DNA of 64,000 bases from Escherichia phage ST2, in sequence record OM982647; one strand, 5' to 3'. Both the position numbers and the translations under genes were made by a program. The notes under the pieces were generated by a model. That model made no database searches. It saw only the letters and a program-made list of their open reading frames with translations, and was not told the origin of the DNA. Numbering within the stretch: the first letter of the stretch is position 1; each line of letters opens with the position of its first letter. This document shows, piece after piece, positions 874-63,700 of the stretch.

Positions 874-877
874 TTTA

Positions 878-895
878 GGGAGACTTCGGTCTCCC
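878..895 (+). terminator. stem-loop GGGAGAC-UUCG-GUCUCCC followed by short U-run (putative intrinsic terminator after gene 8)
   Basis: Perfect 7-bp inverted repeat with UUCG tetraloop, 5 nt after the gene 8 stop; identical 18-mer recurs three more times in the window. Confidence 0.6.
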
Positions 896-902
896 TTTCG
901 TG

Positions 903-14210: not shown

Positions 14211-14223
14211 TAAGACGCCTGAT

Positions 14224-14241
14224 GGGCTATTTCGGTAGCCC
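14224..14241 (+). terminator. UUCG-tetraloop stem-loop after gene 18
   Basis: GGGCUAU-UUCG-GUAGCCC 14 nt after the gene 18 stop, directly abutting the gene 19 late promoter. Confidence 0.5.
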
Positions 14242-14242
14242 A

Positions 14243-14250
14243 TATAAATA
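14243..14250 (+). promoter_or_regulatory. T4-type late promoter (TATAAATA) for gene 19
   Basis: Exact TATAAATA 73 nt upstream of gene 19 ATG. Confidence 0.65.
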
Positions 14251-20204: not shown

Positions 20205-20233
20205 TGCTTTAACGTTAAAATACATAACCTTAT

Positions 20234-20251
20234 GGGAGACTTCGGTCTCCC
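20234..20251 (+). terminator. intrinsic terminator GGGAGAC-UUCG-GUCUCCC + U5 after gene 23
   Basis: Perfect 7-bp stem with UUCG tetraloop followed by CAUUUUUGG, 30 nt after gene 23 stop; same 18-mer as at 878, 42737 and 57467. Confidence 0.75.
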
Positions 20252-20261
20252 ATTTTTGGTT

Positions 20262-35898: not shown

Positions 35899-35927
35899 TA
35901 GTATCACACATCCATGTGTTTGTAAAC
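35899..35927 (-). promoter_or_regulatory. T4 early-type promoter for the 97-aa ORF
   Basis: Minus-strand GTTTAC (35922-35927, overlapping alt stop) - 17 bp - TGnATACTAT. Confidence 0.6.
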
Positions 35928-38014
35928 TATCCTTGGACAAATTTAAACGGAACTGATTCTAAATCCATTAAAGATGCTAACAATTTCAAACCTTTAGGTG
36001 CACTAGTTTTTTCTACAAATGAGGAGAACGATACCGGCTCATCTGATTCGATTTCACCCGCCATAGCAACCACCTCGCCTGTTTCCATGAGAACATCGCC
36101 GTCGTAAATGACAGCTTCATCCAACTGGTCCGAGGACATGACTTCAGCTTGAATAAATTTAAGGTTGGATTCTAAACCTGCACCGGTGTCAGATGACGCA
36201 TCTGTAATTTTATTTATCTGCAAGAGAATGCCTCTAGGCAAAATAATTTCTTGCTCATTAGGGTGATTACTCAACTGTCCTGGATAAATCACGTTAACTT
36301 TATGGGCGCCATCAATAGCCCATCCAACGTTAACACGGATTTGTTCTGGTGCATGCATAGCTGTTCTTACTTGACTAGGAGAAATGGTAACACCTTCGTC
36401 ATTATTGTCAATGTTAAGCTCTTTGCGAACTTCTTCAGGAGCAAGTCCAAGGGCAACGTTCTCTTTAAACCCGCCGAAAATAATAGGAGCTAGTGAAGTG
36501 GAAACATAGTTTCTGAAGTAGAATACCTTATTTTTAACCATTGCTTCGTAAATAGGCATTCTGATAGACTGAGCTCTATATAACGTTAGTCCTTCAGGTA
36601 AACGGTCTCCATTTAAAAACGCCGAATCAAGACCATCAATAGCGCGTTTAACTTCATCTTCATCCGCAACATCGTAAAAATCTGGTTTATAACGACCTAA
36701 CAACATATTATTGATATCGGTATACGCAGAAGAGGCATATTCACGAATAGCTCGTTTTTCAGCAACAGAGTATTGTTTAGGGTCCCGATTCATTGTTATA
36801 TTAAAGGTGCCTCTAGCCGATTCTCGTGCATAAGTATACATCACATTAGACAAGAACGCTGATTTACGTTGTTTCCAAGTTTTTTCAGATACTTCAGCTA
36901 AAACATCGTCGGCCAGTTGGAAATTATCACGTCTAAAATCTTCAAACCATTCGTCTTTAATAGAGTCTGCAATTTCGTTTGCAGCTTCAACAAAAGCAGC
37001 TAATGCTTTAACAGATGTTGTTTTTTCAGTTTTAATTTTCTTAGCAAACTTTTCTAAAGTTGGCTTAATAACACTACCATAAGAAACTTCATCAGCAAAT
37101 CTAAAGGATTCATCAATACGATTATAAATCTTATTTTCGATATCAGCAACTAAAGTGCCTTTTGCTGTGGATGATGCTTGGGCTAGTACGATTTCATATG
37201 CTTCAGGAAGTAATTCGGCTGTAGCCGGGCCACTAACTTCTTTAGCAGAATTTTCGTATTTCTGGAATAACTCACCTTCTTGGCGGTCAGCTTCTAAAGA
37301 TTGGCTTGCGGCAATAGCGCGCCGAGAAATTTTAGTACGAGCAATAACAGGCTTATCTTTACGTTTTTCTTCTACAGCAGCAATAGAACCAGCGATAGCC
37401 GTTTCTTTGGTGACCTTTTCGCCAGTCTTTTTACTCACATAAACTTCGCCAACATCAGAATCTACTTTCGTGTACAACTCTGTGTTAATGTTAGGGATGC
37501 CTTTAATATCTTCAATGTTGGCATTTTTACGAACCATCATCACATAGGTGTGTTTACCTGTGAATTGATACATTGCCGACAATACTTTAAAACGACCACC
37601 GGTTTTAGTAGAAACTAAACGAGCAAGAAGAGTTTGAAGTTGTTGTCCGCGTCCTTTCAATTTCTTGGTAGGGAATCTGAACAGAACCGCGTCCATACGA
37701 AGAGCTTTAACCTGTTCATATACTGTATTGAAAATGGTGTTGATTGCATCAATAGGAGCAGGACCAAGACCGTTTTTCAATTCAGCGAGATTACCCTTTT
37801 CAGACAGACTCATAATAACGACATGAGCATATTTGTCGCCAAGTTTAACTTGTTTTACAGCATCGCCTTCAGAAAGGTAAGAGAATAAGCGAACTACGAT
37901 GTTTGTATCGATATCACCAATTTTCCAGACTTGTGGAACTTTAGCTTTAGGGTTCAAATTGACGACAGGAAGACTGCCTTCAGATTCAAACACTTCATTT
38001 AATTGTTCAGACAT
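35927..38014 (-). CDS. alt: Alt ADP-ribosyltransferase (virion-packaged, modifies host RNA polymerase)
   Basis: 695 aa (T4 Alt is 682 aa); position 54-alt-30 as in T4. Confidence 0.92.
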   Translation of the reverse strand: MSEQLNEVFESEGSLPVVNLNPKAKVPQVWKIGDIDTNIVVRLFSYLSEGDAVKQVKLGDKYAHVVIMSLSEKGNLAELKNGLGPAPIDAINTIFNTVYEQVKALRMDAVLFRFPTKKLKGRGQQLQTLLARLVSTKTGGRFKVLSAMYQFTGKHTYVMMVRKNANIEDIKGIPNINTELYTKVDSDVGEVYVSKKTGEKVTKETAIAGSIAAVEEKRKDKPVIARTKISRRAIAASQSLEADRQEGELFQKYENSAKEVSGPATAELLPEAYEIVLAQASSTAKGTLVADIENKIYNRIDESFRFADEVSYGSVIKPTLEKFAKKIKTEKTTSVKALAAFVEAANEIADSIKDEWFEDFRRDNFQLADDVLAEVSEKTWKQRKSAFLSNVMYTYARESARGTFNITMNRDPKQYSVAEKRAIREYASSAYTDINNMLLGRYKPDFYDVADEDEVKRAIDGLDSAFLNGDRLPEGLTLYRAQSIRMPIYEAMVKNKVFYFRNYVSTSLAPIIFGGFKENVALGLAPEEVRKELNIDNNDEGVTISPSQVRTAMHAPEQIRVNVGWAIDGAHKVNVIYPGQLSNHPNEQEIILPRGILLQINKITDASSDTGAGLESNLKFIQAEVMSSDQLDEAVIYDGDVLMETGEVVAMAGEIESDEPVSFSSFVEKTSAPKGLKLLASLMDLESVPFKFVQG

Positions 38015-42630: not shown

Positions 42631-42736
42631 TTTATTCTCCGGTTGTTTTATTGATTAGGTGGTACAAGTCTATAGTAACACATCCTACAGGAGAGTAAAC
42701 ATCTTTTTAAACTTTTTCTGCCCTAAACGCACAAAA

Positions 42737-42754
42737 GGGAGACCGAAGTCTCCC
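42737..42754 (-). terminator. intrinsic terminator GGGAGAC-UUCG-GUCUCCC + U-run after the small basic protein gene
   Basis: Same 18-mer as after genes 8, 23 and 32; on the minus strand followed by UUUUGU. Confidence 0.7.
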
Positions 42755-42759
42755 TAAAA

Positions 42760-49235: not shown

Positions 49236-49723
49236 GTTTTAATAATCTCAATGATTTCATCTCGGGATAATCCATTGATAAGAACGGTTTTCAAACCATC
49301 ACACTGGATTTTGTACGATTCAAACAATACACACAACTCTTCTGCTGTATGATACGGACTTGAAATTCCGAGGCGGTTGAATTTGTCGGTAAGAGGGTCG
49401 CAAATAATGTAGAATTTTATACCTGCGATATGTACGTTTGGTTGACTAATATTAATGAACACATTAGCGTCATATTTAGTCAAATTGTTTTGAAGAAATT
49501 CTACCATGGCATTAACTGCTTCCGGCATTGCTTCACGTTTCTCTTCAGCGTATCGGGTGGAATACTCTTTTTGTTTTACTTTCTTTTTAAGATTTTTGGC
49601 CAGTGTAACACGTAGGTCAGTAAGATAACCAACTGGACGTCCTTTCTTAAAGACCCGGATTCCGTCAGTTGTATCTCCAAAAGCGGTTACGACCATATCG
49701 TTAGTAATCAATTGCATATTCAT
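49223..49723 (-). CDS. alc: Alc (host transcription terminator on cytosine-containing DNA)
   Basis: ORF-track frame 49223..49786; start set at ATG 49723 with GAGGAG Shine-Dalgarno, giving 166 aa (T4 Alc is 167 aa); position between rnlA and spanins. Identity by position and length. Confidence 0.8.
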   Translation of the reverse strand: MNMQLITNDMVVTAFGDTTDGIRVFKKGRPVGYLTDLRVTLAKNLKKKVKQKEYSTRYAEEKREAMPEAVNAMVEFLQNNLTKYDANVFINISQPNVHIAGIKFYIICDPLTDKFNRLGISSPYHTAEELCVLFESYKIQCDGLKTVLINGLSRDEIIEIIKTCLK

Positions 49724-49753: not shown

Positions 49754-49783
49754 ATAGTAACACCTTCCTTGGTGTTTGTAAAC
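49754..49783 (-). promoter_or_regulatory. T4 early-type promoter upstream of alc
   Basis: Minus-strand GTTTAC (49778-49783) - 17 bp - TTACTAT, directly after the rnlA stop. Confidence 0.55.
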
Positions 49784-51403: not shown

Positions 51404-52579
51404 TTAGAAATATTTTTTGTATGAATTGATTACATTTTGGTCTACATCATTATCAATTTGTGCGACAAGATAAGAACTGATTTCAACTTCCTGAGGAGCT
51501 GCTTGAACTAAATCAGAGTTCAGATATTCACGAATCCAAGGATACGGATGTTTGGTCGGAGCATCAGTGATTGGGCATGGCAAACCACACTGTTTCATAC
51601 GAGACACAGTCAAGTAATCAACAAAAGCACACATACTCTGCGTATTGATACCCGGACATGTACCATCTTTAAAGAGGTGTGCAGCCCATTCCTTCTCTTG
51701 TCTATTTACTTCCATAAAAATGTCAACTGCTTCTTGTTCACATTCTTTAGCAATTTGAACCCACTCATCACCATCGGTACCGGACTGAAGTTGACGGATA
51801 ATGTACTGAGTACCCTTGAGGTGGAGTTGTTCGTCGCGAGCAATGAACTTCATAATCTTTGCATTACCTTCCATAATTTCCATATTTTTATGGAAGTTGA
51901 AAGTACATGCAAATGATACGTAAAAACGAATAGCTTCTAAGGCGTTGATAACATGCAAACAGAGATAAAGAGACTTCATTAAATCACGCTTGGCGTTAAA
52001 CATTATTTCTTCGTACATCTCAATATCATTCTGCTGGCATGAGCCTATTGAATACTCATAATTTTCCTTAGCATTTTCCCAATGACGAGTCTTGACTAGA
52101 ACATCATCATAATATTTGCCGATTGATTCCGCACGTTTCATAATTGCTTCATCTAATACAATCTCATCAAATACCTTCGATGGATCAGTATAAAGATTTC
52201 GCATGATATGAGTATATGAACGAGAGTGAATGGTTTCACTGAATGTCCATGTAGCAACCCATGTATCTAATGAAGGGTCGGAAAGCAATGCCATAAGTAC
52301 CGCAGATGGTGCCCTGCCTTGGATAGAATCCAATAATGATTGATACTTAAGGTTGTTCGTAAAGATGTTCTGTTGGAACTGTGGAAGCTTATTGAACTGC
52401 GCAGAGTCCAACATCAAGTTTACCTCTTCAGGGCGCCAAAAAAACGACAATTGCTTTTCAATAAGCTCTTCAAAAACTTTATGGCGTTGAATATCGTAAC
52501 GCGCCAGACCAAGACCGGAACCGAAGAACATTGGTTCATTCAAAACATCAACTTTTTGGGTATTAAAAACTGTACTCAT
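51404..52579 (-). CDS. nrdB: ribonucleotide reductase small (beta) subunit, intronless
   Basis: 391 aa continuous ORF (T4 NrdB is 388 aa); no intron or I-TevIII-like ORF interrupts it. Confidence 0.95.
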   Translation of the reverse strand: MSTVFNTQKVDVLNEPMFFGSGLGLARYDIQRHKVFEELIEKQLSFFWRPEEVNLMLDSAQFNKLPQFQQNIFTNNLKYQSLLDSIQGRAPSAVLMALLSDPSLDTWVATWTFSETIHSRSYTHIMRNLYTDPSKVFDEIVLDEAIMKRAESIGKYYDDVLVKTRHWENAKENYEYSIGSCQQNDIEMYEEIMFNAKRDLMKSLYLCLHVINALEAIRFYVSFACTFNFHKNMEIMEGNAKIMKFIARDEQLHLKGTQYIIRQLQSGTDGDEWVQIAKECEQEAVDIFMEVNRQEKEWAAHLFKDGTCPGINTQSMCAFVDYLTVSRMKQCGLPCPITDAPTKHPYPWIREYLNSDLVQAAPQEVEISSYLVAQIDNDVDQNVINSYKKYF

Positions 52580-52595
52580 TATATTCTCTCAATAG

Positions 52596-52613
52596 TGACT
52601 CATCCATGAGTCA
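52596..52613 (-). repeat. 18-bp palindrome TGACTCAT-CC-ATGAGTCA in the nrdA-nrdB intergenic leader
   Basis: Perfect 8-bp arms around a 2-bp centre, 17-35 nt upstream of the nrdB ATG. Confidence 0.5.
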
Positions 52614-52629
52614 ATTATAAACAAAATTC

Positions 52630-54885
52630 TTAAAGCTTACAAGCGGAGCAATCTTCAGCTTTAGGCGTTTCTAACTCATAGTCATCTGTACCAGAACCAT
52701 CTCGAGTGTTATGATAGTAAAGGTTCTTACCACCAAAGTACCAGAAGTAAAGCAAGTCATCAAGCATTACAGACATTGGCACTTTGCCTTTCTCAAAGAC
52801 TGAAGGGTCGTAGTATGTATTAGCAGAAGCAGATTGGCACACCCATTTTAACATGATAACAACTTGTGTCAGATAAGGCTTATTACCTTTCTTAGCGAGT
52901 TTCCACGCATAGTCATAAAGACCCATGTTGTGTTCAATATTAGGAACTACTTGACGGAAATTACCTTCTTTAGATTCTTTAATACTTACTGGGCCACGAG
53001 GTGGTTCAATACCATTTGTGCTATTTGAGACCTGGCTGCTTGATTCGCATGGCATGAGAGCACTGAGTGTACTGTTACGAATCCCGTGTTCTTTAAGTTC
53101 GGCTCGTAGTTCTTCCCAATCACATACATAGTTTGGGGCTGCGATTTGGTCAATCTTTTTATTGTACCAGTCGATAGGTAATTCGCCTCGAGACCATTTA
53201 GTGTCTGAATAATACTCGCAACGTCCTTTTTCTTTGGCAAGTTTGATTGACGCTTTGATAAGGCCATATTGTAATCTCTCAAACAATTCATGAGTCAAAT
53301 CGTTAGCATCTTCATATGAAGCAAAGTTAGAAGCTAACCAGGCTGCATAGTTAGTAACACCAACACCTAGGTTTCGACGCTTTTTAGCTTTTAAAGCTTC
53401 TGGAACCGGATAATCTTGATAGTCTAACAAGTTATCAAGTGCACGTACTTGCACTTCAGCAAGTTCATTAATTTTATCTTGGTCTTGCCAATCAAATTTA
53501 TCAAGAACAAAAGCAGAAAGAGTGCAAAGTCCAATTTCTGCGTCAGGACTATTAACATCATTAGTTGGAATAGCTATTTCACAACATAGATTGCTCTGAC
53601 GAATAGGAGCTTTTTCACGAATAAATGGAGTGTAGTTATTTGTGTTATCAACAAACTGTGGATAAATTCGAGCAGTGCCAGAACGTTCAGTCATGAACAA
53701 TTCAAAGAGTTCTAGTGCTTTGATTCTTTTCTTTCTGATTGTTGGATCTTTTTCAGCTTTCTCATAAAGCTCACGGAATTTATCTTGATCTTCAAAGAAC
53801 GAGTAGTATAGTTCGCCTGACATTTCGTGAGGGCTAAATAAAGTAATATAATCATTTTTACCAAGGCGTTCCATCATAAGGTCATTAATCTGAATTCCGT
53901 AGTCCATATGTCGAATACGGTTTTCATCCACGCCTTTGTTATTTTTCAGAACTAATAGGTTCTCTACTTCTAAGTGCCACATCGGATAATACGCTGTAGC
54001 AGCACCGCCACGAATACCACCTTGAGAACAAGATTTTACTGCAGTTTGGAAATGTTTCCAGAATGGAATAACACCCGTATGTCGAACTTCACCCATACCG
54101 ATCTTAGAACCTTCCGCACGAAGCATACCAACGTTGATACCGATACCAGCTCGTTTAGAAATATATTCGATAATTGATGCTGAAGTTTTGTTAATAGATT
54201 TTAACGAATCACCAGCTTCAATAACTACACAACTAGAGAACTGGCGAGTCGGAGTACGAGCACCTGCCATAATTGGAGTAGGCAATGAAACTTGATGAGT
54301 AGAAACGGCATCATAAAAACGAATAATATGTTTCAAACGGTCACGAGTTTCGTCTTGATGTAAAGCCATGCCAATAGCCATAATAGCAAACTGTGGAGTT
54401 TCATAAATCTTCCCAGTTGTTTTATCTTTAACTAGATATTTTTCTTTAAGCTGCATAGCGCCAGCATAAGTCAGGTCAAAGTCTCGTTCATGTTTAATCT
54501 GTGAATCGAGATAAATGATTTCTTCTGCAGAATATCTAGACAACAACTCAGGGTCGTATTTGCCTTCATTAACACAATAAGAAATATGGTCGATAAAAGC
54601 AGGCGGTTCAAACTGCCCATATACATCTTTACGAAGTGCAAACATTAGCCCTTTGGCGGCGACATACTGATAATCAGGTTCTTCGACAGAAATCGAGTTA
54701 GCTGCAACTTTAATACAAATCTTCTGGATATCTTTGGTGCTCATCCCATCAACAAGATGGGTCTTAATTTCTTCGTACAATTCATATGGGTCAATTTGTG
54801 TTCCTTCACATTGCCAAGTTAATACTTGAATAATTTTCTGTGCATCAAAATTTTGGGATACACCACTGCTCTTAGTTACTTGCAT
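52630..54885 (-). CDS. nrdA: ribonucleotide reductase large (alpha) subunit
   Basis: 751 aa (T4 NrdA is 754 aa); N-terminal ATP-cone and class Ia catalytic core. Confidence 0.97.
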   Translation of the reverse strand: MQVTKSSGVSQNFDAQKIIQVLTWQCEGTQIDPYELYEEIKTHLVDGMSTKDIQKICIKVAANSISVEEPDYQYVAAKGLMFALRKDVYGQFEPPAFIDHISYCVNEGKYDPELLSRYSAEEIIYLDSQIKHERDFDLTYAGAMQLKEKYLVKDKTTGKIYETPQFAIMAIGMALHQDETRDRLKHIIRFYDAVSTHQVSLPTPIMAGARTPTRQFSSCVVIEAGDSLKSINKTSASIIEYISKRAGIGINVGMLRAEGSKIGMGEVRHTGVIPFWKHFQTAVKSCSQGGIRGGAATAYYPMWHLEVENLLVLKNNKGVDENRIRHMDYGIQINDLMMERLGKNDYITLFSPHEMSGELYYSFFEDQDKFRELYEKAEKDPTIRKKRIKALELFELFMTERSGTARIYPQFVDNTNNYTPFIREKAPIRQSNLCCEIAIPTNDVNSPDAEIGLCTLSAFVLDKFDWQDQDKINELAEVQVRALDNLLDYQDYPVPEALKAKKRRNLGVGVTNYAAWLASNFASYEDANDLTHELFERLQYGLIKASIKLAKEKGRCEYYSDTKWSRGELPIDWYNKKIDQIAAPNYVCDWEELRAELKEHGIRNSTLSALMPCESSSQVSNSTNGIEPPRGPVSIKESKEGNFRQVVPNIEHNMGLYDYAWKLAKKGNKPYLTQVVIMLKWVCQSASANTYYDPSVFEKGKVPMSVMLDDLLYFWYFGGKNLYYHNTRDGSGTDDYELETPKAEDCSACKL

Positions 54886-54972
54886 ATATTCCTCAGTATA
54901 GGTTGATAGACATTACTCCAAACGGGATAGTATTTATCCCGTTAATTTATTATACACTTTTAAACTGAAGCG

Positions 54973-60777: not shown

Positions 60778-63700
60778 GAGGACTACCATGGTTGACATCA
60801 AACGTAAGTTCAGGGCCGAAGATGGTCTTGACGCAGGCGGTGATAAGATAGTTAACGTTGCGCTTGCTGACCGCACAGTTGGCACCGATGGCGTGAACGT
60901 TGACTTTTTGGTGCAAGAAAACACCGTACAGAATTATGACGATACGCGCGCGTATACAAAAGATTTTATTGTTCTTTATGATAATCGTTTTTATCAAGCT
61001 TTAAGCGATATTCCAGCTCCGGCAGGCCCTTTCTCTTTGGCTAAATGGAAGGCAACTCGTACAGATGCAGAATGGATTACAGTTCAAGGCGGAGATTTCC
61101 AATTATCAGTAGGTAACTCTATTGCGGTTGATACTTCAGCTGGCACTGATATTAATTTCACTTTGCCTCAAAATCCTTTAGATGGCGATACAGTTATTTT
61201 GTCTGATATTGGCGGTAGAGTAGGCTATGTAAAAGTTCAAATTACTGCAGCGGCTCAAAGTATTGTAGACTTTAGAGGACAACAGGTTCGTTCAGTTTTA
61301 ATGACGCACCCAAAATCTAAAATGGTCTTCATTTTTAGCAACCGCCTATGGCAAATGTATGTTTCTGATTACGAACGTAATGCAGTCACAGTAACTCCTG
61401 CCACGCCATATCAAGCGCAACCTAATGATTTTATCATTCGACGTTTTACATCAGCCGCTCCTATTAATATTACATTGCCTCGTAATGCTAATAATGGCGA
61501 TATTATTAATTTAGTGGATTTAGACAAATTAAACCCATTATATCACACAATTGTCAAAACTTACGATGAAACAACTTCTATACGAGAAGCTGGTGTTCAT
61601 GTAGCAGAAGGACGTAATACTGCGGAAGCATTCTTTGTTTATGATTCTGCCAATAGTTTATGGCGTGTTTGGGAAGGTGACCAGAAATCTCGTTTACGTA
61701 TAGTTCGTAATGATACTGATTTACGCCCTAATGAAGAAGTTCTTGTTTTTGGAACTAATAATGATACAATCTCGACGGTAAATCTTACTTTGCCTACAGA
61801 TATTTTGTCTGGCGATACTGTTAAAATATCGTTGAATTATATGCGTAAAGGGCAAACTGTAAAAATTAAAGCTGCTGAAGGCGATACAATTGCTAGCAGT
61901 ATTTCTTTATTACAGTTCCCAAAACGTTCGGAGTATCCACCTGATGCACAATGGGTTTCTGTTAGTGAGCTGGAATTTAATGGTGATACTTCGTATGTAC
62001 CTGTACTTGAGTTATCTTATATAGAAGATTATTCATCTGAAACAAAATATTGGGTAGTTCAACAAAACACCGTAACCGTCGAACGAGTCGATGCATCGAG
62101 CAATACCACTCGAGCTCGTTTAGGTGTTATTGCTCTTGCTTCTCAAGCGCAAGCAAATGTCGATTTAGAAAATGCTCCTGGTAAAGAACTGGCTATTACT
62201 CCGGAAACATTAGCAAATCGTACAGCAACTGAAACTCGTCGTGGTATTGCTCGTATTGCAACAACTGCACAAGTTAACCAGAATACCGATTTTGCATTCC
62301 AAGACGACTTGATTATTTCTCCTAAGAAATTGAACGAACGTACAGCAACCGAAACCCGTAGAGGTGTTGCTGAAGTTGCAACTCAGGCTGAAACTAATGC
62401 CGGAACAGATGACACCACTATTATTACTCCTAAGAAATTGGATGCCCGTCAAGGTTCTGAAGTTTTATCTGGTATTGTAAAATACACATCTACGACTGGT
62501 ACTACAGCTGCTACTATTCGTGGTAATGCTGGGACTAACGTTTATAACAAAGCCGTAGATAATTTAACTATTTCTCCAAAGGCCCTTGACCAATATAAAG
62601 CTACCCCTACTCAGCAGGGTGCAGTAATTCTTGCTATTGAAAGTGAAGTTATCGCTGGCGAATCACAGGCCGGTTGGGCTAATGCTGTAGTGACCCCTGA
62701 AACTCTGCATAAGAAAACTTCTACTGATGGACGTATTGGTTTAATTGAAATTGCTACGCAAGCAGAAACTAACACTGGAACTGATTATACTAGAGCAGTA
62801 ACGCCTAAGACGTTAAACGATAGGAAAGCTACGGAAGGATTATCTGGCATAGCCGAAATTGCTACGCAAGTTGAATTTGATACTGGAACTGATGATACTC
62901 GTATCTCGACTCCACTGAAAATTAAAACTCATTTTGATTCTTCTGACCGTACCAGTGTTAATTCTGATTCCGGACTTATTGAAGAAGGAACCTTGTGGAA
63001 CCATTATACTCTTGATATTTCTAAAGCAAATGAAACACAACGTGGTACACTTCGCGTAGCGACCCAGGCAGAATCTAATGCAGGAACTTTAGATGATGTT
63101 CTTATTACTCCTAAAAAGCTTTTAGGGACTAAGTCCACTGAAACGTCTGAAGGCGTAATTAAGGTTGCTACTCAGGCTGAAACTGTAACAGGAACTTCTG
63201 CTAATACTGCTGTATCACCTAAGAATTTAAAATGGATTGTTCAATCAGAACCATCATGGACTGCTACTACGGCAATTCGTGGATTCGTTAAAACTTCATC
63301 TGGTTCTATTACATTTGTTGGTAATGATACAGTTGGTTCAACACAATCTTTAGAATCATATGAGAAAAATAGCTATGCGGTATCACCATATGAATTAAAC
63401 CGTGTACTTGCTAACTACTTACCGTTGAAAGCTAAAGCAGCTGATAGTAATTTGTTAGATGGTCTAGATTCTCTTCAGTTCATCCGTAGAGACATCGACC
63501 AGACGGTTAATGGTTCTTTAAGTCTTACTAAACAGACCAACCTGAGTGCTCCTTTAGTATCTACAAGCACTGCTTCTTTTGGTTCCGAAGCATCTGTTAC
63601 TCGTAGATTAACTCTTAATGATTCTAGCGGTTCTGAAATAATTTTCACTAAAGGAACCCAATCTCTTAGTAATAAAGAGAATTTCGTTGTTAGAGCATGG

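Follow-up and report, generated by a model that had tools for sequence, protein, structure and literature searches.

The nrdA-nrdB spacer of phage ST2

We analyzed a 64,000-nucleotide (nt) stretch of the Escherichia phage ST2 genome (sequence record OM982647; called the window below), focusing on a palindrome between nrdA and nrdB, which encode ribonucleotide reductase's large and small subunits. A first-pass annotation of this DNA had reported a perfect 18-bp palindrome in the nrdA-nrdB spacer, upstream of the nrdB start. Both the palindrome, which reads 8+2+8, and its location, which we place 17 to 34 nt upstream of the nrdB ATG, were correctly described, as were the two flanking genes, whose identities we took from 99%-identical annotated Straboviridae phages (e.g., CAU_ECP01, LH01, and LF82-9). 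The spacer is 50 nt long, and the palindrome lies wholly within it, between the nrdA stop codon and the nrdB start codon (Table 1). On the gene-sense minus strand this region reads nrdA ...TGT AAG CTT TAA-GAATTTTGTT-TATAAT-TGACTCA TGGA TGAGTCA-CTATTGAGAGAATATA-ATG (nrdB), and the palindrome itself is TGACTCAT-GG-ATGAGTCA. The 18-mer is present as a single copy, with no further copy found in the window.

In RNA of the gene-sense strand, the palindrome is predicted to form a stem-loop with a folding energy of -8.0 kcal/mol, which is seen in both the minimum free energy (MFE) and centroid folds and whose 4-nt loop becomes the hexaloop AUGGAU if the A-U pair opens. The loop GGA is 26 nt upstream of the nrdB ATG, while the nrdB Shine-Dalgarno (SD) sequence and ATG lie outside the helix and are largely unpaired in the MFE fold. 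We found no UCC in the leader able to form a pseudoknot with the loop GGA. By number and by fold stability the palindrome is unremarkable: the window contains 6 perfect palindromes with arms of at least 8 bp and a center of at most 2 nt, compared to 4.5 expected from Markov shuffles, and the stability z-score of the 81-nt fold is -0.78, which is not unusual. Its significance therefore rests on comparative data, and conservation with covariation in relatives, described below, argues that it is more than a chance palindrome.

Conservation and covariation of the stem-loop

To compare this site with those of related phages, we gathered nrdA 3' junctions from 12 GenBank phages and 45 IMG/VR loci. 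A TA(T/G)AAT hexamer plus a hairpin follows directly after the nrdA stop codon in 41 of the 58 nrdA-3' loci, representing 25 distinct sequences from at least nine phage groups; the hexamer is present in all 25 variants, and the hairpin begins 0 to 2 nt after it. The carriers include Mosig-, Dhaka-, Karam-, and Jiaodavirus, Tequatrovirus members that lack mobE, Serratia CHI14/Kosakonia Kc304, Enterobacter CIP9, Yersinia TG1/phiR1-RT, and Yersinia fHe-Yen9-01. We found that the stems differ wholly among groups while pairing is retained (GACTCA, GGACCA, AGGACA, GGCTCA, GGGATA, ACCACA, and GCTCA), with hairpin energies among the variants ranging from -3.3 to -10.6 kcal/mol.

Covariation was scored on an alignment of the 25 distinct sequences over 32 columns (alignment A2), in which 87% of the cells are paired, six of the seven pairs show double changes, and G.U pairs are few. 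The covariation score was 0.63, compared to 0.22 in shuffled alignments (0 of 500 reached the observed score) and at most 0.16 in slid controls. RNAalifold, used independently, recovered five pairs, each showing compensatory changes, around a loop of 6 nt, A-N-G-G-A-N. The conserved unit is thus a stem of 5 to 7 bp that closes an A-N-G-G-A-N loop and not the 18-bp perfect palindrome: the stem is conserved as pairing, but this does not extend to T16-A19, the pair at the very center of the palindrome, since 12 of the 25 variants have C in column 16. From these data we consider it highly probable that the element is a selected stem-loop.

The first-pass annotation had preferred an operator for a dimeric DNA-binding protein and had offered an RNA stem with a 4-nt loop as the alternative. 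The half-sites differ by phage group (TGACTCA, TGGACCA, GAGGACA, TGGCTCA, AGGGATA, and TACCACA), the stems include G.U pairs, and the invariant center is asymmetric, with A15 found in 25 of 25 variants and its mirror position being T in only 19. A symmetric dimeric operator is therefore not supported, as no conserved two-fold half-site was found and only complementarity is kept. Since the stem varies with pairing kept while the apex is invariant, the data favor an RNA stem-loop, and the alternative offered by the annotation was essentially right, with the five covarying pairs closing a loop of six rather than four nt.

The invariant apex and the CsrA consensus

Within alignment A2, A15, G17, G18, and A19 are present in 25 of 25 variants and C14 and G21 in 24 of 25, while the base differs among variants at columns 16 and 20 and at every column of the outer stem. 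The apex columns (14, 15, 17, 18, 19, and 21) carry 1.76 to 2.0 bits of information, compared to 0.5 to 0.9 bits for the stem columns. The invariance of the apex on a variable stem therefore indicates that the selected unit is C-A-N-G-G-A-N-G on an arbitrary helix.

This apex resembles the binding site of the host global regulator CsrA and of RsmA and RsmE (consensus sources PMC7652899, PMC6849547, PMC5864733, PMC5207318, and PMC5694010). [quoted passage not shown] The window apex, UCAUGGAUGA, is an exact match to (A/U)CANGGANG(U/A). Among 27 junction variants, 19 match the full CsrA consensus, 7 match the core, and 1 matches ANGGAN only. The GGA is exposed in an ANGGAN loop of a short hairpin by RNAalifold, with GGA and its 5' A in 25 of 25 sequences. 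In relatives with a correctly identified start, the loop GGA precedes the next start codon by 18 to 36 nt, regardless of the identity of the downstream gene; the variants L012 and L028/L030 were mis-scored by the script, and by eye their GGA lies approximately 21 to 22 nt upstream of small open reading frame (ORF) starts. We also found a second GGA in the SD sequence of the following gene in 13 of the 27 variants, 9 to 10 nt before the AUG, a two-site layout like that of glgC.

A tblastn search with E. coli CsrA against 50,697 phage records gave 88 matches. Escherichia and T4-like phages were not among them, which would leave host CsrA or some other, phage-encoded protein as the binder. From the match of the loop to the consensus, host CsrA is a tentative candidate for its reader, at odds that we place appreciably short of even.

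A predicted nrdB promoter overlapping the stem-loop

A consensus scan identified TTGTAA-17-TATAAT, ending at 52614, with 10 of 12 positions matching (a sequence match only). The MotA-like box overlapping this -35-like hexamer is made of the last nrdA codons and the stop codon, and its distance from the -10 box compares with the 12 +/- 1 bp described together with the MotA box consensus (PMC2988021). The MotA-like box and TATAAT are thus predicted to form an nrdB middle promoter. The hairpin spans -6 to +12 of the predicted promoter, and because the predicted start site falls inside the 5' arm, nrdB RNA started there would lack this arm, and only transcripts reading through from nrdA would fold the hairpin. 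The first-pass annotation had recognized the site as lying in the nrdB leader but had overlooked that the hairpin adjoins the -10 box of this promoter and that T4 has mobE in place of the spacer.

In phages of the UGA-UAUAAU type, in which TATAAT adjoins the stop codon (Tequatrovirus and locus L019), we saw nothing convincing as a MotA box at a spacing of 12 +/- 1 bp; only in the AAGCTT-TAA class, to which the window belongs, is the middle-promoter call therefore solid. A mini-ORF starting from the AUG inside the hairpin was considered and rejected, as this codon is not conserved and reads ACG in Tequatrovirus. In the GenBank records of the Dhakavirus phages PSD9 (L006, 519..) and IME341 (L007, 525..), nrdB is annotated as starting at the hairpin ATG (ATGGATGAG...), making it 10 in-frame codons longer. 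Judging from other genera, these two starts appear to be mis-annotated, the likely real one being the downstream ATG (MSTVFN...).

The nrdA-nrdB junction in T4 and other relatives

The annotation had proposed a comparison with T4 and its relatives, which gave a divided answer: the hairpin is kept in many T4-like relatives, but T4 proper lacks it, as do LF82-7 and several IMG/VR loci. T4 and these other phages lack the element because mobE takes the place of the entire spacer, with the mobE start codon overlapping the nrdA stop codon. The ORFs directly 3' of the hairpin also vary, being nrdB, one or two small ORFs, a 263-amino-acid (aa) ORF, or a homing-endonuclease ORF of 485 to 488 aa (junction insertions in L004, L010, L011, L012, L013, L025-L029, L031-L033, L037, and L043). 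The stop/start codons of the small ORFs overlap those of nrdB, which suggests that they are translationally coupled to it. In T4, an intrinsic terminator in mobE ends 30 to 50% of transcripts and has been proposed to balance nrdA and nrdB, whereas phages without mobE were reported to have no terminator in the nrdA-nrdB spacer (Wilson & Edgell 2009).

More distant T4-like phages (L042 and L048-L057) have other hairpin types at the same nrdA-3' position. Serratia PS2 and L048 have UUCG or UUCA loops and U runs, which are terminator-like; Krischvirus ECD7 has a GAAA hairpin between TTGACG and TATAAT; and Acinetobacter AbTZA1 has GUAA hairpins after TAAAAT. A hairpin at the nrdA-3' boundary is near-universal, but the GGA loop is not.

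Similar hairpins at other gene junctions

T4-like phages contain promoter-early stem-loop (PeSL) and promoter-middle stem-loop (PmSL) cassettes (Arbiol 2010, PMC2839356; Comeau 2014, PMC4122927), whose stem-loops are regarded as terminators or attenuators and which act in recombination as linkers flanking ORFs that have been inserted, deleted, or replaced. [quoted passage not shown]

A scan of the window for the apex motif identified two more CANGGANG hairpins at gene junctions, both embedded in promoters (Table 1). The hairpin between alt and the DUF5498 gene lies inside the spacer of a GTTTACA-N17-TACTAT early-type promoter, 35 nt before a GGA-containing SD sequence. It is also kept in other lineages, where the stems covary (ACA/TGT, GCAC/GTGC, and ATCC/GGAT). 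This GGA hairpin is absent at the alt junction of the Enterobacter CIP9-like phages L064 and L066, where the promoter spacer holds CTCGAATGAACG. This sequence is the complement of the opening codons of the ORF that lies downstream (ATGCGTTCATTCATTCGAG), and in read-through RNA, pairing over this long range could hide the start codon. The hairpin between rnlA and alc is missing from the corresponding junction of the Tequatrovirus loci L076-L080. At the window junction, alc likely starts from the ATG at 49723, behind the SD sequence GAGGAG, rather than at the ORF-list start of 49786.

We also scanned the whole genome of Mosigvirus TH58 (MT446423.1) and found 12 CANGGANG-apex hairpins on the sense strand of early genes and 2 on the antisense strand. 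The expectation from Markov shuffles was 1.3 +/- 1.1 (maximum of 5 in 100 shuffles), corresponding to an approximately 9-fold enrichment, and control apexes gave 0 to 4 hairpins. Of the 12 sense-strand hairpins, 10 occupy gene junctions, and the majority lie in TTTACA-N17-TATAAT spacers. Several cassettes are near-identical, those at 62168 and 105599 among them, suggesting that they arose by PeSL-type duplication or by gene conversion.

Hairpins of other kinds are also found in the window. A 9-bp hairpin without a GGA loop, AACGGGATA...TATCCCGTT, lies at 54921..54943, within the spacer that immediately precedes the nrdA start (54885). GC-rich hairpins with classical T4-style C(UUCG)G loops occur at 877..896, 14222..14243, 20232..20253, and 42736..42755 (e.g., AGGGAGAC TTCG GTCTCCCT) and form a second, separate class of intergenic hairpin in this genome.

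Table 1. Features of the nrdA-nrdB junction and related hairpins in the window
Feature	Coordinates	Strand	Details
nrdA, ribonucleotide reductase large subunit	52630..54885	-	Upstream gene; ORF and annotation of 99%-identical phages; stop codon 52632..52630
sigma70 -35-like TTGTAA	52642..52637	-	Overlaps MotA-like box
MotA-box-like GTAAGCTTTA	52631..52640	-	8/10 match to wwwTGCTTtA; 11 bp upstream of -10 box
-10 box TATAAT, predicted nrdB promoter	52614..52619	-	Adjoins hairpin directly; consensus scan
18-bp palindrome	52596..52613	+ and -	Perfect 8+2+8; + strand reads TGACTCATCCATGAGTCA, - strand reads TGACTCATGGATGAGTCA
Stem-loop	52596..52613	-	5' arm UGACUCA 52613..52607, loop UGGA 52606..52603, 3' arm UGAGUCA 52602..52596
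Apex U-CAUGGAUG-A	52600..52609	-	Exact match to CsrA/RsmA consensus (A/U)CANGGANG(U/A) and to E. coli CLIP-seq motif AuGGAug
Predicted transcription start (+1)	52607	-	Invariant A, 7th nt after -10 box; position from -12 TAtaaT -7 numbering (PMC2988021)
nrdB translation initiation region	52577..52590	-	SD-like GAGAG 52590..52586, ATG 52579..52577
nrdB, ribonucleotide reductase small subunit	51404..52579	-	Downstream gene; ORF and annotation of relatives
Third CANGGANG hairpin, AACAC[CAAGGAAG]GTGTT	49759..49776	-	Between rnlA and alc, inside GTTTACA-N17-TACTAT early-type promoter spacer
Second CANGGANG hairpin, ACA[CATGGATG]TGT	35906..35919	-	Between alt (ADP-ribosyltransferase, 35927..38014) and DUF5498 gene (start 35868)

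Interpretation and alternatives

We favor the reading that the nrdA-nrdB element is a PeSL/PmSL-type stem-loop that works as RNA and whose loop is bound by host CsrA, and we assign this reading as a whole a probability of about 0.45. Its first part, in which a PeSL/PmSL-type element exerts its role as RNA, is probable in its own right; we infer the start site, the action at the RNA level, binding by CsrA, and which way any effect would go. In this model, the cassette promoter, consisting of the MotA-like box and TATAAT, would start transcription within the 5' arm, so that the promoter-started nrdB mRNA could not fold the hairpin and the full hairpin would form only on transcripts reading through from nrdA. 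On read-through RNA, the hairpin would mark the nrdA/nrdB boundary, and CsrA bound to its loop would alter the translation and/or stability of the following gene. Because the helix includes neither the SD sequence nor the AUG, inhibition of any kind would require that a protein be bound. In this way, the amount of NrdB made from the nrdB promoter would be set separately from nrdA read-through, and the hairpin could possibly also act as a weak attenuator or a barrier to 3' exonucleases, as PeSL stem-loops do.

Several observations weigh against this reading. There is no second GGA in the nrdB SD sequence of the window (GAGAG), of RB69, or of Dhakavirus; such a second, lower-affinity GGA over the SD sequence, which lets the CsrA dimer bridge both sites, is typical of repressed targets and is not obligatory in all CsrA targets. 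The stems, at 5 to 8 bp, exceed those of most SELEX ligands (4 bp or less), and the CsrA match was recognized post hoc, after the pattern had been seen. The GGA loop is lineage-specific and not dictated by the host, because Krischvirus, which infects E. coli, as well as Serratia PS2 and Acinetobacter phages, have other hairpins at this position, and the element is lost altogether in T4 and other mobE carriers. The CsrA sponge CsrB is unusually stable during T4 infection, in which the Csr system is perturbed (PMC9697503), so free CsrA may be limited; a release of CsrA by CsrB decay after host shut-off, which we had considered, is contradicted by this stability. Our literature search found no link of CsrA to T4-type gene control. 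The position of the transcription start inside the hairpin is itself predicted. In addition, the GGA hairpins of early promoters may share ancestry through cassette duplication, which would inflate the genome-wide count, and covariation alone cannot tell an RNA hairpin from a single-stranded DNA hairpin.

The leading alternative, which we rate as unlikely, is that the element is purely structural, a plain PeSL-type stem-loop with no protein reader. Such a structure would attenuate or terminate nrdA transcription or block 3' exonucleases, with the overlapping promoter restarting transcription for nrdB and the loop being kept by its stability or by cassette ancestry. This would agree with the description of PeSL stem-loops as terminators or attenuators, one of them equal to rrnB T1 in lacZ reduction, with the T4 mobE hairpin that terminates transcripts at the equivalent place and is the proposed balancer of NrdA and NrdB, and with the UUCG- or GNRA-loop hairpins, some followed by U runs, at the junction of distant T4-like phages. 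However, it leaves unexplained why C-A-N-GGA-N-G is invariant while the stem changes completely in at least six ways, and we know of no evidence that NGGA is an unusually stable class of loop. The variant stems are also weak by their calculated energies, and no U tract is present. A consensus scan found no terminator-like site in 52300..52900, where the sequence after the stem is CUAUUGAGAG, and an intrinsic terminator was rejected on this basis. Given the missing U tract, the energy of approximately -8 kcal/mol, and the report of Wilson & Edgell that phages without mobE have no terminator in this spacer, terminator activity is doubtful.

A reader other than CsrA, either encoded by the phage or another RNA-binding protein, would make the loop a phage-specific translational operator or processing signal common to many cassettes. 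The invariance and sense-strand enrichment of the apex fit this explanation, as does the distribution of the GGA loop by lineage rather than by host, and T4-type phages encode several RNA-binding regulators, among them RegA, RegB, and gp32 (PMC3014915). We nevertheless regard it as improbable, since no known T4 RNA-binding protein has this specificity and the exact match to the CsrA consensus would be a coincidence: RegB requires the 11 single-stranded nt GGAGRAYARAA and would be blocked by the structure, and RegA sites are AU-rich and located at the AUG.

Quite improbable, in our view, is a role at the level of DNA, in which the palindrome would be the operator of a dimeric protein over the nrdB promoter start or a hairpin/cruciform that serves as a recombination linker for cassette swaps. 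The operator version gains from the overlap of the palindrome with the predicted promoter (-6 to +12), and the linker version gains from PeSL-mediated recombination, including the crossover in a loop, and from the junction being an insertion hot spot. Against both stand the unconserved half-sites, the asymmetric center, and the G.U pairs, which break DNA symmetry, and the other copies place the same apex at differing positions relative to -35 and -10, so that the geometry of the promoter is not kept.

A chance origin of the palindrome, or a role as a RegB cleavage site, is barely credible. Although approximately 4.5 such palindromes are expected per 64 kb and RegB occasionally cuts at GGAU, a sequence found in this loop, covariation over at least nine phage groups excludes chance, RegB/S1 depends on an A-rich single-stranded tail, and it cleaves GGAC and GGAA poorly. 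As a RegB/S1 site the element was rejected in any case, as the fourth base is U, C, or A (GGAG in 0 of 25 variants) and the 3' flank is base-paired and not A-rich. The NrdR box, a 16-bp palindrome (acaCwAtATaTwGtgt) that is usually found in tandem at nrd promoters, was also rejected: as the first-pass annotation had stated, the site does not match it, and a scan allowing up to 3 mismatches found nothing near the site, the sole match in the window, at 62040, comparing with 1.8 expected. The only Rfam match was to csRNA, below threshold (21 bits versus a cutoff of 57 bits; E = 2.5) and on the opposite strand.

Ribonucleotide reductase requires a balance of its two subunits, and these data pinpoint a conserved, probably RNA-level, element at the nrdA/nrdB boundary that may bear on the nrdA:nrdB ratio in T-even phages without mobE. 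PeSL/PmSL cassettes have so far been treated as a promoter, a terminator, and a recombination linker, and the sense-enriched invariant CANGGANG loop suggests an added signal for recognition by a protein. If host CsrA reads this loop, it would be the first link of the Csr system to gene expression in T4-type lytic phages and would give the phage a simple route to sense host physiology. A broader proposition, more speculative and on the unlikely side, is that T-even-type enterobacterial phages build CsrA-binding hairpins into promoter/stem-loop cassettes, at nrdA-nrdB and at a dozen early-gene junctions. The promoters would start inside or beyond the hairpin, leaving a CsrA site on read-through RNA only, and the Csr state of the host would set the protein made from read-through relative to promoter-initiated transcripts.

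Comparison with known systems

Like the T4 mobE terminator, the nrdA-nrdB hairpin stands a few tens of nt past the nrdA stop codon and is associated with a separate nrdB middle promoter, which in the window is predicted. In contrast, the mobE hairpin combines a GC-rich stem of 9 bp with a U tract, lies inside a coding region, and is not homologous. A similar arrangement is seen in the hairpins at T4 genes e, soc, 49, and I-TevI, where RNA started at the promoter lacks the 5' arm and longer upstream transcripts fold the hairpin (PMC3014915); the predicted nrdB promoter likewise lies within or against the structure. In those genes, however, the helix sequesters the SD sequence or AUG, whereas the nrdB SD sequence and AUG are outside the helix.

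The element shares with PeSL/PmSL cassettes an intergenic promoter (sigma70-type or Mot-box) and a stem-loop between the upstream stop codon and the downstream SD sequence and ATG, with the stem-loop in a described position relative to the promoter, here starting 0 nt past the -10 box. The genome contains further copies of this kind, and the nrdA-nrdB element borders a site of ORF insertion, deletion, or replacement. Unlike those cassettes, it is located in the conserved nrd core and not in a hyperplastic region, and its stem is weak and without a U tract. It also differs from PeSLs in lacking an AT-rich upstream region, because the upstream sequence is the 3' coding part of nrdA. As this region is listed as "generally" present in PeSLs and is not listed for PmSLs, we call the element PmSL-like and not a strict PeSL.

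As a short hairpin with an ANGGAN loop closed by C-G, the element resembles known CsrA/RsmA sites such as those in the glgC leader, the ribosome-binding-site hairpin of hcnA, and the repeats of CsrB. As in glgC, where CsrA bridges a hairpin and the SD sequence, many relatives have a second GGA in the SD sequence, and in the window the site is 26 nt upstream of the start. It differs from these known sites in being on the transcript of a virulent phage, in overlapping a promoter so that it would be present on read-through RNA only, and in that the window SD sequence has no second GGA. The invariant CANGGANG apex is unmentioned in Arbiol 2010 and Comeau 2014, and "GGA" occurs 0 times in Arbiol 2010. 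The promoter/stem-loop design is already known, and the invariant CsrA-type loop recurring at many cassettes is a feature not previously described.

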